Assembly: GCA_964386765.1 (NCBI GenBank)
Contig: CAYLUC010000002.1
Coordinates: 2,202-66,201 of the forward strand
DNA: 64,000 nucleotides
Reading direction: 5' to 3'
Source of the DNA: an uncultured Candidatus Poseidoniales archaeon
GTDB lineage: Archaea; Thermoplasmatota; Poseidoniia; Poseidoniales; Thalassarchaeaceae
The notes under the pieces were generated by a model that saw only the letters and a program-made list of their open reading frames with translations, ran no database searches and was not told the origin of the DNA. Positions 20,593 through 59,543 of this stretch are shown here, in pieces. How positions within the stretch are numbered: position 1 is the stretch's first letter; each line of letters starts with the position of its first letter. Both the position numbers and the translations under genes were made by a program.

Positions 20593-21210
20593 ATGGCTCT
20601 AGACATCAAGCCCACCCGGTCAGAGCTGATCAATCTGAAGAGGAGAATCAAGCAGACATCCAGTGGGTACAACCTGCTCAAGATGAAGAGGGACGGCCTT
20701 TTTCACGAATTCAGAACACTTCTTTCTGAGATGATAGCTGCTAGAGAGGAATTGGTCGGGACTTACAGAGAGGCCCTTCAGGCAATCAGTCTGGCTTCCT
20801 CCATAGAGGGCGGGCTATCGGTGAAGAGTGCTGCCATCGCGGCATCCAAAAGACCCGAGGTAACCGTTTCCAGGAGGAACATAATGGGAGTAGTAGTCCC
20901 GAAAGTGGATGGGGAGAACCTGAAACTTTCAATGGAAGACAGGGGACTCGGACTAGTCGGGGGCTCTCCGTACATAGACGAGGCGGCGGACTCATACTCG
21001 CTACTGATTGAGAAAGTGGTCAAGGCAGCTGAGATGGAGGCGACTTTGAAGAGGCTACTCGAGGAAATAGAGGCCACTAAGAGGAGGGTCAACGCTCTGG
21101 AATTCAAGGTCATCCCGGAGATGAAAGAGGCACAGGCCTTCATCCAACTGCGCCTCGAAGAGATGGAAAGGGAAGAAACCTTCAGACTCAAGAGATTCAA
21201 GAATAAGTGA
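20593..21210 (+). CDS. atpD: A-type ATP synthase subunit D
   Basis: 205 aa coiled-coil central-stalk subunit, last gene of the operon. Confidence 0.9.
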   Translation: MALDIKPTRSELINLKRRIKQTSSGYNLLKMKRDGLFHEFRTLLSEMIAAREELVGTYREALQAISLASSIEGGLSVKSAAIAASKRPEVTVSRRNIMGVVVPKVDGENLKLSMEDRGLGLVGGSPYIDEAADSYSLLIEKVVKAAEMEATLKRLLEEIEATKRRVNALEFKVIPEMKEAQAFIQLRLEEMEREETFRLKRFKNK

Positions 21211-21219
21211 GGGCTAATT

Positions 21220-21236
21220 CGCTCTCGTAGAGAGCG
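21220..21236 (+). terminator. perfect stem-loop CGCTCTC-GTA-GAGAGCG, 10 bp after the atpD stop (possible operon-end hairpin)
   Basis: 7-bp GC-rich perfect inverted repeat with a 3-nt loop immediately downstream of the last ATP synthase gene. No T-tract follows, so its function is uncertain. Confidence 0.3.
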
Positions 21237-21269
21237 AGGGGTCAAAACACAGCACTTCTGGCACTAACT

Positions 21270-23774
21270 GTGACCGAGGCGCAGCCGACCCCCGAAAGAC
21301 TCGTCTTGGACAACGAGACCTGGAGTCACAGGGACCTTGCCGAAGTTATCTCATCGAGGTATTTCGTTCTCGGCGATGATGAGATGGGCGCCGCTTCATG
21401 GAGGGTAAGGGGCCACGATGGAAAGGACGAGGGCGACTGCCTCGTGGAGCTGAACCGGCATCTGTCCCCACTTGGGATGATAGGGGTACTGGATTTGGGA
21501 AACCCCCCCGTCCTCTCAATATCCGAGCTTCCCAGTGGGATCCCGGTGCTGCCGAAATGGCAACAGTTCGCCGTTTGGATGGCCATGTTCTCGTTCATGA
21601 CAATCGCCGGTATCGGCCTGATTTCGAGAAATGATCCAGACGCCCAATTTGGAATGGAAGCCATCTCCCAGGCAACATTGTCATTCTCCATCCCCCTCAT
21701 TTTGGCAGTAGCGCTGTCTAGCGAGATTAGGAGGGCAGTCGCAAAGAGGCATGGTGTCGCATTGAGGGGTTTGGTCCCCCTGGGATTCCCCCTTGCAGAT
21801 GCCATTTGGCCATTCGGCGTGGCTGGGTTGCTGCCTCAGAACCGCCCGGATCAAGTCCCATATCCCAACAGGAGGGCATTGGCTCAAGTCGAGTTGTCCG
21901 CTCCATTGGTGACATTCTCATGCGGTGTTTTGCTGTCAATAGTCGGTCTGAGCATGACCTCAACCAGCCCACCCGGTATCAACTCCGCTCCACTGGTCGT
22001 TTCTGCTAATCCCCTGTTGGAACACCTTTCAAACCCATGGCTCGGTGATGATCTGGCTACAAGGCTACAGTGGCTACACCCGACGGGAGTTGCCGGTATC
22101 GGACTCTGCGCCGTCTCATGGATCATGATGATGCCAATTCCAGGCTTCCCCGGGGATCACCTCTTGCACGCAATTTTCGGACCCGACAGCATCCTGGCTG
22201 AAGACAAGCAGACGTACATCTTCGCACTGACTCTGATAATGATGGTCATCGCATTCTCCAGCAACACATGGCTACCATGGCTTTTCCTTGCCGCCCTTGC
22301 TACCTGGAGGAGGTTTAGCCCCAATCCCCTGCTGGACCCTTTCGTGGTGGATGAGCATTCGGGGCTCGACGACATCTCTCGAAACAGGACGATAGCAGCC
22401 GTCATGGTGATCCTGGTCGCAGGATTCCCCGGGATCAACGGGGCATACCATCTGCAAGACTGGGATGAGGGCCTCTCGACCGAGTCATGGCCTGAGTACG
22501 CCTCCTTCGAGGATGGGCACGCTGAGATCGACCTGCTCCTGGAGCCGACCGGAGTATTGCCCGTGTCCGGCTGGCTGCAGATGAGGGTAGAGGGCGCGAG
22601 TAGTGTCGACTGGCAGATCAATTCCAAGTGTCTAGACGAACGAGGAGTATGCAGATTCGACGACATCACCCAAGCGTCACAGGGCAGCATAGAAATTGAA
22701 CTTTCGATAGTCCCTCCCCATTCCCCCGAGATGACATCAGTCATCTCAGAGAATATGACTTTCAGACTAGTAGTCTTAATTGATGTCGATGGTCATGTTT
22801 CCGAGCACTCAGTACTGTTCGAATCGGCCGACTCAACCTCGTCTATAGCTCCTCTTTGGGAATTGGTCGAGGATACATCGACCCCTAGGATATGTGTAAA
22901 GATGAGGGTCTCTGAAGGGGACTATGTCAATCTGAGTCTTCATTCTCATTGGGCGGCATTCTGGTCCTTCGAGAACGAGACTTCACTCGCAGAAGGAACA
23001 CACGACTTGTGCCTGAGGGGAAAGTTCGGAGCCTTCCACTATTCGTCCCATCATCTGTTCCGAGATGAGCAACACCTCCTCCTCGGACCACCGATTATCC
23101 TAGGACGAGATGGCCAACAAGATGAGTGGCTCTCCATGCCAATCGAGGGCACTATGCCAAAACTGCATGTCTCAGGCGAGGAGTGGAAGTTACCCGAAGA
23201 CATGGTGAGTTGGATGGTTTCGAAACAGTATTCCCTTTCTTATGTCGAATCAGGCCCCGTTTTCTGCCCTTCTACCGATGTGATACCGGAGGTAAATGCT
23301 ACGGGCGATTGGGTTCGCGAACTGGCCGACCGCTCCTCTATTCTATTCGCCCCTCCATATGAGAATCCCTCGGAGACTGGCACCATCAGGATAGATAATT
23401 ATGGCTGGCTTCTGGTCTGTAATGGGACGCACATCGTAAAGCTGTGGGAAGTAACCGAAGGGCCGGAGGTGCTGATCAATGGATTTCCAAGTGGCTCCAC
23501 ATTCCCGGGCAGCTCCCAGAATCCTAACCTTGGATTTATTGGTTTCACAATAGAGAACAGGGAGAACTACTCGATGCCCCTGTCAATGGAACTTTCAGGT
23601 GATGCGGGCATCTGGTCCATGCCCTCCTCGGACATTTCTGCTGTCGGACCGATGGAGACCTTGCAAATCGAGCCTGCCACTACTAGCGGATGTTGCTCTG
23701 CATTCTGGGTGACGGCCGACGAGGACGGCATAACGATCCACTACGCAGCCCGCTCCGAAGGGGTTGTGCCATGA
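21270..23774 (+). CDS. Large polytopic membrane protein; site-2-protease (M50)-like core with degenerate metal-binding motifs plus a roughly 450-aa C-terminal extracytoplasmic domain
   Basis: 834 aa. The annotated start is GTG 21270; the first ATG is 21384. Multiple TM helices. LAVALSSEIRRAVAKRHGVALRGLVPLGF aligns to the M50 HExxH helix (consensus LLHELGHALVARRYGV...LPFGG) with both His replaced. MMPIPGFPGDHLLHA aligns to the M50 NxxPxxxLDGG motif. The hydrophilic C-terminal half is Cys-containing. Confidence 0.7.
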   Translation: MTEAQPTPERLVLDNETWSHRDLAEVISSRYFVLGDDEMGAASWRVRGHDGKDEGDCLVELNRHLSPLGMIGVLDLGNPPVLSISELPSGIPVLPKWQQFAVWMAMFSFMTIAGIGLISRNDPDAQFGMEAISQATLSFSIPLILAVALSSEIRRAVAKRHGVALRGLVPLGFPLADAIWPFGVAGLLPQNRPDQVPYPNRRALAQVELSAPLVTFSCGVLLSIVGLSMTSTSPPGINSAPLVVSANPLLEHLSNPWLGDDLATRLQWLHPTGVAGIGLCAVSWIMMMPIPGFPGDHLLHAIFGPDSILAEDKQTYIFALTLIMMVIAFSSNTWLPWLFLAALATWRRFSPNPLLDPFVVDEHSGLDDISRNRTIAAVMVILVAGFPGINGAYHLQDWDEGLSTESWPEYASFEDGHAEIDLLLEPTGVLPVSGWLQMRVEGASSVDWQINSKCLDERGVCRFDDITQASQGSIEIELSIVPPHSPEMTSVISENMTFRLVVLIDVDGHVSEHSVLFESADSTSSIAPLWELVEDTSTPRICVKMRVSEGDYVNLSLHSHWAAFWSFENETSLAEGTHDLCLRGKFGAFHYSSHHLFRDEQHLLLGPPIILGRDGQQDEWLSMPIEGTMPKLHVSGEEWKLPEDMVSWMVSKQYSLSYVESGPVFCPSTDVIPEVNATGDWVRELADRSSILFAPPYENPSETGTIRIDNYGWLLVCNGTHIVKLWEVTEGPEVLINGFPSGSTFPGSSQNPNLGFIGFTIENRENYSMPLSMELSGDAGIWSMPSSDISAVGPMETLQIEPATTSGCCSAFWVTADEDGITIHYAARSEGVVP

Positions 23775-24721
23775 GGATAGCGATTCTCGGTGTCGGATCG
23801 ATAGGCACCGTGATTCTCGGAAGCCTGTCCGACACTGACGCCGAGATTGTGGCAGTCTCAAGGGGACAGAGGTTCGACGAGCTGGCCAATGAGGGAGTCA
23901 TCCTGCACTCTCCCGAGGGGTCCATTGAAGTGATACCTCCTGAGAGGTATGAGGCCGTTGACAGCGAGTCAGGACCGATTCCTCCGAGTTTGAGGAAGTC
24001 GTGCGACGCTATCGTCATCTCGGGCAAGTCCTCATCCACCCCAATCCTGTCTCAGATCGCGGAGGAGCTCCTGAGCGAGGGCGGAGTCGTGATGAGCATC
24101 CAGAACGGCATGGGGCACGCTGAGGTGATCTCCAGCAGGGTCGGAAGGGGCTCTGTGCTGGGAGGGACGACCACACATGGTGCTTGGACGGGGGAGTCTG
24201 GCAGTCATTGGGTGGGAAGGGGCTCGATCAGAATGGGGAATCTCGGTGGTGGACCTGCGAACGGGAGTGCTGAGTTGCTGTACCAATACCTGTCAGAGGC
24301 ATCTCTCAATCCAGAGTGGGACTTGGACATCCAAAGGTCAATCTGGACCAAACTCTTGGTCAACGTGGCAATAAACCCAATCTGTTCCATAGCAGGGGTG
24401 AGGAACGGGGCGCTTCTGGAATCTACATACTTGTGGGACCAAGCCCTGTCCGCTATGTCAGAGGCATCAGCGGTTGCTCAGGCATGCGGCGTGGATCTGG
24501 GCGATACCGACTTAGAAGACCTTCTCAGAGGGGTGGCCAAGTCAACTGCCGACAATAGGTGCTCGATGCTGCAGGATCTGATGTCGGGACGTAAGACCGA
24601 GATAGAGTCAATCTGCGGGGCTATTGTGAGCAAGGGCGAGGATGTCGGAATCCCAACGCCCCGGAACTCAATGCTGCTTGCTCTTGTGAAGGGAATCGAG
24701 TCGTCATCACACTTGGACTGA
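23771..24721 (+). CDS. panE: 2-dehydropantoate 2-reductase (ketopantoate reductase, PanE/ApbA family)
   Basis: The start ATG at 23771 overlaps the upstream stop (ATGA). N-terminal Rossmann fold MRIAILGVGSIGTVILG, and the conserved KLLVNVAINP and NRCSMLQDL..GRKTEIESICG motifs. Confidence 0.8.
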   Translation: MRIAILGVGSIGTVILGSLSDTDAEIVAVSRGQRFDELANEGVILHSPEGSIEVIPPERYEAVDSESGPIPPSLRKSCDAIVISGKSSSTPILSQIAEELLSEGGVVMSIQNGMGHAEVISSRVGRGSVLGGTTTHGAWTGESGSHWVGRGSIRMGNLGGGPANGSAELLYQYLSEASLNPEWDLDIQRSIWTKLLVNVAINPICSIAGVRNGALLESTYLWDQALSAMSEASAVAQACGVDLGDTDLEDLLRGVAKSTADNRCSMLQDLMSGRKTEIESICGAIVSKGEDVGIPTPRNSMLLALVKGIESSSHLD

Positions 24722-30474: not shown

Positions 30475-31476
30475 GTGGCAGTACTAGACGGTCAAGCAAT
30501 GAGGGATGACATAGTTTCCAGGCTCCTGGGGGGAGAGGCAGATTTGGCCACTAGCAAGTATCTGGATAGGATTTCAGAGTTAGCTTGCATGGAGGAGGCA
30601 GAACACCAATTCCTAATTGATCCATTTGACAGATCAGTGGCTCTGGTTTTTCAGATGTTCCAGTCAAGTGATTTGGATCCATGGGATGTCGACTTATCCT
30701 GCTTCCTCGAGATGTTTTCCAGCAGGATAGAAAATTCTGAAAACATCGATCTACCAACCTGTGGTCGTTTGATAAGGATGGCATGGTCAATACTCAAGGG
30801 ACAGGCATCGGACCTAATTGAGAGACAAGAAAGAGCACTCGACTTTGCAGATGAGGATGATAATTGGGAATTCGAGGGAGGGTGGGAGACTGACTTCGAT
30901 GATGCTGACTACAATTTCTCAGTCGGGGTCTTGTCAGGTGCCGCTGACGAGGTACTCCCATCAATGTTCGAAGGAAGAATCCACAGAGACGAGGGCCGCC
31001 CTGTAACTCTCGGCGAATTAATTCTCGGACTACAAGAAGCCGGGAGGCTTGCGGAGGAGCAGAGAATCAGAGAGAAGATTGCTGAGGAGAGGAGGGACGC
31101 ACTGTCCGTTGCAAGAAAGAGATTCAGTGGGAGTCTGCATGTCGAGGATTTAGAAGGGGACTTGGAAAGGACATGGGAGGCACTCATATCCAGGGCCAGG
31201 GGCAATGGAAGCAATATTTCCCTCGAGGATATCTCAAGTGAGTTGATGGACAGGTCGATGAATTCTGGAGTACAGGTCGAAGAGGCCCAAGCAGAAGCTC
31301 AGGTAACAGCACTGGTTTCCGCACTTTTCCTCACGAACAGGGGTTACACCGAACTGTCCCAGGAGCCTGGAAAAGATGGGACTATCACCCTAAAACCACT
31401 CTGGGAGGGCGATGAGACCTTCTCAGAATTAACAAACAGACTACACCCGAATGAAGGATCACTGGGGGGCCAATAA
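30475..31476 (+). CDS. scpA: Segregation and condensation protein A (ScpA kleisin)
   Basis: The DPWDVDL motif, an acidic central region and a C-terminal winged helix. It sits between smc and scpB. Confidence 0.85.
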   Translation: MAVLDGQAMRDDIVSRLLGGEADLATSKYLDRISELACMEEAEHQFLIDPFDRSVALVFQMFQSSDLDPWDVDLSCFLEMFSSRIENSENIDLPTCGRLIRMAWSILKGQASDLIERQERALDFADEDDNWEFEGGWETDFDDADYNFSVGVLSGAADEVLPSMFEGRIHRDEGRPVTLGELILGLQEAGRLAEEQRIREKIAEERRDALSVARKRFSGSLHVEDLEGDLERTWEALISRARGNGSNISLEDISSELMDRSMNSGVQVEEAQAEAQVTALVSALFLTNRGYTELSQEPGKDGTITLKPLWEGDETFSELTNRLHPNEGSLGGQ

Positions 31477-58763: not shown

Positions 58764-59543
58764 TCACTTCTGTATTAGCTTAGTTCCACCTGGAAGGACT
58801 ACAGTTGATGCCCCTCCTTCAAAACCGCTTGCTCTAGCGCAAAGTGAGGCACTAACAAACCACCCAATGACCAGGCCCGATAATATCCCGGTAACTAGCC
58901 TCACTGGATTCGTGGATTCGTAATCAGTGCCCAGCTGTGTGAAACCATCTATCGCCATTGGAATAATGCCCAATCCAAGAATTATCGCCATATTCCTCAT
59001 TCTGTAGTCGTTTGCATATGTCGATTCCAGGGCATCATCTGGAAAAACAGATAGGAAGGTGTCCCTAATAGTCCATCTGTTTAGCCCCCTCGAGCCAAAT
59101 AATGCAACACCAATTACGAAACCAAAGAATATCCCAACGTCCCTGACACAGACTGGCATCTGATTGCCATTTATCGCCCACGACCTCTCATGCTTCTGAT
59201 GGCAATTTAGATCGCCGAAGGCGTAGGTAAATGCGAATATCGGATTTAGTTCCGACCATGCAAAAATCCCTCCATGTTCAGCTTGGTCGTGCCCTACCTC
59301 GTCATTCTCTCCACCATTCGTATTGCCCCAGCTATTTTCCGTGGAATAGTCCAATGCATTGGCCCGTCCAGAGAGTTCGGGCACCGTACCCTCGGGCAAC
59401 GCCATTGGGGAGAGGAAGCAAAGTAGTAGGTAAGTACCGCCAATGCCGGCCATGATCTTAGAAATTTTGACCTCTCTGAGTCTATCGCCCCTGCCGTTTC
59501 TCTCGAGGCCCATGCTTGCCAGACATGGCAATCCAAAGTTCAA
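58764..59543 (-). CDS. DUF2085-like polytopic membrane protein
   Basis: Conserved Cys/His segment (DLNCHQKHERSWAINGNQMPVCVRDVGIFFG) between TM helices, as in DUF2085 (from memory). The start is uncertain; an internal ATG at 59453 is possible. Confidence 0.5.
   Translation of the reverse strand: MNFGLPCLASMGLERNGRGDRLREVKISKIMAGIGGTYLLLCFLSPMALPEGTVPELSGRANALDYSTENSWGNTNGGENDEVGHDQAEHGGIFAWSELNPIFAFTYAFGDLNCHQKHERSWAINGNQMPVCVRDVGIFFGFVIGVALFGSRGLNRWTIRDTFLSVFPDDALESTYANDYRMRNMAIILGLGIIPMAIDGFTQLGTDYESTNPVRLVTGILSGLVIGWFVSASLCARASGFEGGASTVVLPGGTKLIQK

Follow-up and report, generated by a model that had tools for sequence, protein, structure and literature searches.

In a stretch of 64,000 nucleotides from an uncultured Candidatus Poseidoniales archaeon (contig CAYLUC010000002.1 of assembly GCA_964386765.1; hereafter the window), a gene of 834 codons, here called gene X, encodes a membrane protein with a large hydrophilic C-terminal domain. 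We conclude, with a probability of about 0.8, that protein X descends from an archaeal site-2 protease (S2P, peptidase family M50), is catalytically dead and serves as a non-enzymatic anchor, scaffold or receptor with an immunoglobulin-like (Ig-like) ectodomain. The original prediction, made from the letters of the window, had already described a pseudo-protease scaffold or receptor. This reading is supported here, the dead protease fold by homology and residue loss, and the scaffold or receptor role as something that we infer from analogy. Residue numbers throughout are those of protein X of the window.

Homologues of X are numerous but have escaped annotation. Among 5.8 billion proteins 283 were found; almost all of the 120 listed are 797–848 amino acids (aa) long and without a precomputed Pfam domain. 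The listed proteins come from metagenome-assembled genomes of marine Thermoplasmatota/Euryarchaeota, and the sole case named by a source is a “hypothetical protein”. Species-representative genomes titled Poseidoniales, Thalassarchaeaceae, Thalassarchaeum or Marine Group II contributed 67 X loci. Protein X gave no match in Pfam-A or NCBIfam with hmmscan even at E ≤ 10 and none among PDB sequences, and the only PDB match of the family profile, HKT1, was at chance level (E 0.33). The X family is an order-wide, unannotated family of Poseidoniales (Marine Group II) that Pfam and NCBIfam miss. The check set beforehand for the M50 assignment, a hidden Markov model (HMM) search with PF02163, likewise went against it, with no match at E ≤ 10 in X and 16 homologues, but this outcome was overturned by more sensitive profile and structure methods.

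An exhaustive HMMER search of 1.84 billion representatives with the family profile yielded 192 matches, comprising about 50 full-length members, down to E 1e-37, and a tail at E 1e-13 to 1e-4 that covers only profile positions of about 90–350. The 20 tail proteins that were scanned all match Peptidase_M50 (PF02163), with E values between 1e-18 and 1e-25. In a regular-expression survey, essentially every tail protein has HE(M/L)GH and P-x-G-Q-L-D-G, and no full-length X family member has HExxH in its membrane region. A reciprocal HMM, built from 35 active relatives only, scores X at 59.8 bits over residues 112–342, and HHalign pairs family residues 1–405 with the same 35 relatives at 99.65% probability (E 5e-25, 275 columns), the match beginning at residue 22, inside the N-terminal soluble domain. 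Because profile search, reciprocal HMM and HHalign agree, homology of the X membrane domain to S2P/M50 is well supported. The domain has the S2P core fold, with its conserved helices and a re-entrant β-hairpin in the membrane.

A single register emerges from four kinds of comparison, namely profile to sequence, reciprocal profile, profile to profile, and structure. Many non-catalytic residues are common to the X family and the active relatives, namely P142, P170, P174, R192, P199, R201, L204, H270-P271, A275-G276, P289, G295, G304 and W337; H270 is found in 36/43 members of the family and in 33/35 of the M50 relatives, and P271 in 41/43 and 35/35. The family also has invariants of its own in and around the predicted hairpin and the kinked helix (W180-P181-F182, W268, P291 and Q314); of the hairpin motif W180-P181-F182-G183, W180 and P181 occur in 43/43 members and F182 in 42/43. 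One could argue that X resembles M50 by chance or convergence and that the membrane domain derives from an unrelated polytopic family, given that X and 16 homologues gave no direct PF02163, NCBIfam or PDB match. However, four types of comparison share both the register and the motifs P142, P170, PNR+AL, HPTxxAG, P289, G295 and W337, and we consider this explanation highly improbable.

The loss of the catalytic residues was read from columns of 43 X family members and 35 active M50 relatives, in a register tabulated from hmmsearch-guided and MAFFT alignments; the reciprocal-HMM and HHalign pairings place the motifs alike. The register of the two signature helices proposed earlier is the same in the hmmsearch, MAFFT and HHalign alignments, and both segments that had been quoted for it are present. 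S150-S151-E152-I153-R154 stands opposite H-E-x-x-H, and M286..P289..P294-G295-D296 opposite N..P..D-G-G. Both histidines are lost, as had been claimed, with S150 and R154 at their columns. Position 150 is His in 35/35 active relatives, whereas the family has Ala in 31 members, Ser in 7 and no His (n = 43); position 151 is Glu in 35/35 relatives and Ser in 37/43 family members; position 154 is again His in all 35 relatives, and the family carries Arg (25), Gln (15), His (2) or Glu (1). A complete HExxH motif is found in none of the 43 family members and in 35/35 active relatives. At position 286, Asn is present in 32/35 relatives but in only 2/43 family members, which have Leu, Ser or Met. The metal-ligand column, position 294, is Asp in 35/35 relatives, and Pro (40), Ala (2) or Ser (1) in the family. 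The statement that the Asp-Gly-Gly had been altered is correct in that the motif is changed, but it was incomplete: the ligand column holds Pro294, and D296 lies two residues downstream, in place of the second Gly, an arrangement confined to the Marine Group IIb (MGIIb) clade. Position 296 is Gly in 35/35 relatives, and Asp (23), Gly (15) or Asn (3) among the 43 family members. In RseP, zinc is coordinated by two His of the first helix together with the Asp of the kinked helix; the conserved Asn of NxxP (N394) acts as a clamp on the substrate backbone, and the substrate is bound by the edge strand of a re-entrant β-sheet (PMC9401612). With these residues replaced, X would not cleave peptide bonds.

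Positions 154 and 296 co-vary in the family: R/D occurs in 23 members and Q/G in 12, and Asp is never found without Arg. This pattern is compatible with an Arg154-Asp296 pair that would fill the former metal site. As a side observation, the two combinations follow the lineages, with Arg154 and Asp296 (motif PGD[HR]) in Thalassarchaeaceae (MGIIb), Gln154 and Gly296 (motif PGGR) in Poseidoniaceae (Marine Group IIa, MGIIa), and R/N, R/Y and H/G in intermediate lineages. The string “FPGD” also brought up a GxGD-type aspartyl protease of the presenilin/FlaK kind; this candidate was rejected, because the string stands in the wrong motif register and all homology evidence is for M50.

Several points weigh against X being a dead protease of this architecture. 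Its inactivity is deduced from the sequence. The co-variation at 154/296 is statistically weak, because it mostly tracks the single split between MGIIa and MGIIb. The active M50 relatives in the alignment given to AlphaFold2 (AF2) may bias the modelled membrane core in favour of the S2P fold. The loop-by-loop positive-inside bias is weak, and the topology is based on homology and composition. Moreover, S151, R154, E208, H270, D296 and H300 lie near the old active site and show no variation in the 17 closest homologues, and such polar residues of MGIIb could in principle form a clade-specific site. On this basis X might still be an intramembrane protease or another hydrolase whose relocated site is made up of H270, D296, H297/H300, E208 and S151, all invariant in these 17 homologues; D296 is only two positions off the old ligand column, and H270 is common to active M50 proteins. 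Across the whole family, however, these residues are conserved in 23/43 (D296), 18/43 (H300), 18/43 (E208), 9/43 (H297) and 36/43 (H270) members, and the MGIIa orthologues, which occupy this genomic slot too, carry Gln154 and Gly296. Over residues 1–395 of the 43 members, 33 positions are at least 90% conserved. All of them are occupied by W, P, G, R, L, F, T, Q or A, and not one by His, Asp, Glu, Ser or Cys. To judge from these columns, it is therefore unlikely that the whole family shares a catalytic centre at a new place, and we hold continued hydrolase activity of X to be quite unlikely.

Nei-Gojobori estimates of the ratio of nonsynonymous to synonymous divergence (dN/dS; own script) between the window and the orthologous locus L001 gave 0.07 for the X membrane domain, comparable to PanE (0.06) and NadB (0.10). 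In 23 ortholog pairs with unsaturated dS, the ratio was 0.055–0.17 for the membrane domain, 0.03–0.22 for the N-terminal domain and 0.10–0.22 for the ectodomain. As dN/dS is well below 1 in every domain, all three are under purifying selection, the ectodomain being only moderately more relaxed. X thereby combines the three features of a pseudoprotease, namely a retained fold, lost catalytic residues and purifying selection. A decaying pseudogene or gene-calling artefact, for which the loss of catalytic residues and nothing further would speak, is refuted by the conservation of X, with intact reading frames of about 800–860 aa in 67 species genomes, dN/dS well below 1 and more than 150 residues invariant among the 17 closest homologues; we give this explanation a practically negligible chance.

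The allele of X in the window is itself unusually isolated. Its nearest non-identical homologue among the 5.8 billion proteins has 66% identity. Compared with L001, X is 62% identical, the flanking AtpA/B/D are 99–100% identical and SMC is 95% identical; dS is 1.0–2.2 in X (saturated in the ectodomain) and 0.6–0.7 in the flanks. X is equidistant from L001 (6001–8511) and a second locus, L002, whereas the flanks are far nearer L001. This suggests replacement of the allele by recombination, or locally accelerated evolution of a surface protein.

The layout of the protein is given in Table 1. The GTG start of gene X is the first start codon past the upstream in-frame stop (the stop-to-stop frame runs from 21231), and the N-terminus MSEAQPTPERLVLDNETW / MTEAQPTPERLVLDNETW agrees with the N-termini of homologues, confirming the start. 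By hydropathy, the first 95 aa or so are soluble, and hydrophobic segments follow within residues 99–393. The full-length AF2 model was computed from a 78-sequence alignment that included active M50 relatives; a model of residues 1–405 from a 10-sequence alignment had a predicted local distance difference test score (pLDDT) of 47 and was not used. In the full-length model, the N-terminal domain (pLDDT > 90) consists of helices (H) and strands (E) in the order H20-29, E32-37, E43-48, H54-68, E70-75 and E81-86. This α-β-β-α-β-β domain occurs in X and in the active M50 relatives (HHalign from residue 22) and has no Pfam model.

The hydrophilic, Cys-containing C-terminal domain of about 450 aa that had been described from the sequence is borne out. 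Its last 440 aa or so are acidic, with 21 K/R against 67 D/E, and contain 8 Cys. Across the family, six Cys are conserved in 41–43 of 43 members, the mean net charge is about −45, and N-x-S/T sequons average 9.7 in the ectodomain versus 1.3 in the remainder of the protein. The ectodomain is probably glycosylated, disulfide-bonded and displayed at the surface, which makes it a candidate surface protein of this uncultured group. From the orientation of its S2P homologues and the seven membrane passes of the AF2 model, X would have its N-terminus inside and its C-terminus outside, with the end of the former HExxH helix and the hairpin cytoplasmic, as in S2Ps. Extensions past the core are frequent in the active relatives as well (at least 150 residues in 27/35), and some have Ig-like, NPCBM_assoc or CARDB-type Pfam matches. 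The ectodomain of X gave no significant match to these C-terminal extensions, the best being a marginal 19 bits with relative P0194.

Table 1. Features of gene X and its surroundings, in positions of the window.
Feature	Position	Strand	Basis or remark
atpD, final gene of the A-type ATP synthase operon and next upstream neighbour of X	20593..21210	+	Pfam ATP-synt_D, 2e-55
atpD-X spacer, 59 nt	21211..21269	+	Hairpin 21220-21236 and conserved box GCGAGGGGTCAAAAC at 21234-21248
Gene X, putative S2P-derived pseudoprotease of 834 aa, complete	21270..23774	+	GTG start, TGA stop; list of open reading frames
N-terminal α/β domain, residues 1-95, predicted cytoplasmic; common to active archaeal M50 relatives	21270..21554	+	AF2, HHalign
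M50/S2P-fold membrane domain, residues 96-384, about 7 helices and a re-entrant β-hairpin, predicted catalytically dead	21555..22421	+	
Former HExxH position, residues 150-154, S-S-E-I-R	21717..21731	+	Alignments with 35 active relatives
Predicted β-hairpin after the former HExxH helix, residues 168-189; counterpart of the edge strand of the S2P re-entrant β-sheet	21771..21836	+	AF2 strands E168-172, E184-189
P-N-R-R-A-L motif, residues 199-204, common to active M50 relatives	21864..21881	+	P199, R201, L204 conserved in both groups
H-P-T-G motif, residues 270-273; HPTAFAG in active M50 relatives	22077..22088	+	Column counts
M-M-M-P-I-P-G-F-P-G-D-H, residues 286-297, opposite N-x-x-P-x-x-x-x-D-G-G-H	22125..22160	+	Alignments
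Acidic ectodomain, residues 385-834, three to four Ig-like β-sandwich modules, predicted extracellular	22422..23771	+	
panE/apbA (ketopantoate reductase)	23771..24721	+	Pfam ApbA, ApbA_C; ATG overlaps the stop of X

The genomic surroundings of X are as had been noted before. The genes for subunits I, E, C, A, B and D of an A-type ATP synthase lie upstream, so that X follows directly on this operon, and its TGA overlaps the ATG of panE in an ATGA at 23771–23774; nadB (minus strand) and then smc come after panE. In MGIIb, atpD is directly upstream of X in 65/65 loci and panE directly downstream in 58/58. The same order, atpK-E-C-F-A-B-D / X / panE / nadB / smc, is kept in MGIIa (Poseidoniaceae), where X shares only about 20% identity with X of the window. 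This makes the X genes positional orthologues throughout the order and dates the catalytic loss to before the split between MGIIa and MGIIb. None of the active M50 relatives in other archaea occupies a slot between atpD and panE; they stand in unrelated contexts. A search for a second M50 gene within the window found none.

The constant neighbour raises the alternative that X works for the A-type ATP synthase, for example in assembly or stability of its membrane sector, where the S2P-fold groove would hold the transmembrane helix of a subunit; this would be compatible with X being a dead protease. In its favour, atpD directly precedes X and shares its strand in 65/65 MGIIb loci, and does so even in MGIIa loci with so divergent an X; adjacency alone says little, however, because the order of panE, nadB and smc, and thus of the whole region, is conserved too. 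Furthermore, a hairpin and a conserved box in the atpD-X spacer suggest separate transcription, X evolves far faster than the subunits (62% versus 99–100% identity to L001), an extracellular Ig-like array of 450 aa has no obvious function in ATPase assembly, and active M50 relatives do not lie beside atp genes. We therefore regard this role as unlikely.

The hairpin of the spacer, CGCTCTC-GTA-GAGAGCG (21220–21236), overlaps the box, GCGAGGGGTCAAA(A/T)C (21234–21248), which ends 21 nt before the GTG start of X. The box is kept in most MGIIb loci (L001–L064), whose spacers measure 48–102 nt apart from a single outlier of 286 nt. Candidate functions are a promoter resembling a B recognition element (BRE) and TATA box for a leaderless transcript, or a terminator of the atp operon combined with a promoter. 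The idea that the box GAGGGGTCAAA is a recurrent promoter of the window was rejected, as its 2 matches are at chance level and the copy at 59466–59476 (−) does not precede an in-frame start.

Three further observations concern the wider locus. One of the loci, L054 (PANV01000002.1), is titled “Candidatus Neomarinimicrobiota bacterium” but carries archaeal A-type atpA/B/D, X, panE, nadB and smc; its AtpA/B/D are 93–97% identical to those of the window, and it is probably a mis-binned Poseidoniales contig. Directly after smc, an open reading frame of 333 aa (30475–31476, +) has no Pfam match at E ≤ 1e-5; judged by where it lies, it may encode a kleisin (ScpA-like) partner of SMC. MGIIa loci have an extra gene of about 260 aa without Pfam match between nadB and smc, which is absent from the window.

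How such a protein may work can be outlined as follows. The membrane domain retains the S2P core, with the HExxH-type helix, the re-entrant β-hairpin and the kinked helix with its conserved prolines, but no family member keeps the set of residues for zinc binding and hydrolysis: Ala/Ser-Ser-x-x-Arg/Gln stands in place of His-Glu-x-x-His, Pro in place of the ligand Asp, and a hydrophobic residue or Ser in place of the clamp Asn. On one side of it would sit the small cytoplasmic α/β domain, and on the other a C-terminal stalk in which three to four Ig-like sandwiches span about 450 aa. The vestigial groove would be plugged by the basic or polar residue 154, paired with D296 in MGIIb, and it may dock an extended peptide or a partner transmembrane segment via the retained β-hairpin; the fast-evolving Ig-like array would make extracellular contacts. 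As a bolder and tentative hypothesis, which we think possible but doubtful, the dead groove would capture a partner transmembrane segment or signal-peptide-like client without cutting it and so couple the Ig-like array to the cytoplasmic N-terminal domain, an independent archaeal reinvention of the principle of iRhoms, Derlins and EGY3; X could also serve the membrane sector of the A-type ATP synthase or double as a protein for cell-surface or virus contact.

Compared with its closest known kin, the archaeal PF02163 relatives (e.g., P0194, P0203 and P0237, with the motifs HE(M/L)GH ... PNRKAL ... HPTAFAG ... NLLPAGQLDGGH), X has the same N-terminal domain, membrane-core fold and non-catalytic motifs (HHalign 99.65%). 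Unlike X, these relatives keep H-E-H-D-N in 32–35 of 35 cases, lie in different genomic contexts, and have C-terminal domains without demonstrable sequence homology to the X ectodomain. The solved S2Ps, MjS2P (PDB 3b4r), SpoIVFB (8vjl) and RseP (PMC9401612), differ from X in having the zinc ligands, the catalytic Glu and the clamp Asn; their accessory domains are PDZ or CBS instead of an Ig-like ectodomain, and sequence identity is 12–16%.

Catalytic loss is frequent in enzyme families, and in this respect the finding is solid yet incremental. On the other hand, pseudoenzymes on intramembrane-protease folds (iRhoms, Derlins and EGY3) are important regulators in eukaryotes. Among them, iRhoms and Derlins are rhomboid-fold pseudoproteases that function as non-catalytic client-binding scaffolds or chaperones; their fold is unrelated to that of X and their catalytic class is serine, so that the analogy is one of principle only. 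Derlin pseudoproteases are mentioned in PMC13602068. EGY3 has been described as the sole S2P-family pseudoenzyme, known only from plants (PMC9355673). As we propose for X, EGY3 of Arabidopsis and other plants, located in the thylakoid, has been described as a conserved, non-proteolytic S2P homologue, and it is physiologically relevant; unlike X, it is eukaryotic, plastid-located and without an Ig-like ectodomain. Because active archaeal relatives exist, independent loss of activity in X and EGY3 is much more likely than a shared inactive ancestor. The X family would then stand beside EGY3 as a second, independent family of S2P pseudoproteases. It provides a concrete annotation for these proteins, with testable positions at 150, 151, 154, 286, 294 and 296, and a natural system for asking what role is left to an S2P fold that would no longer cut.

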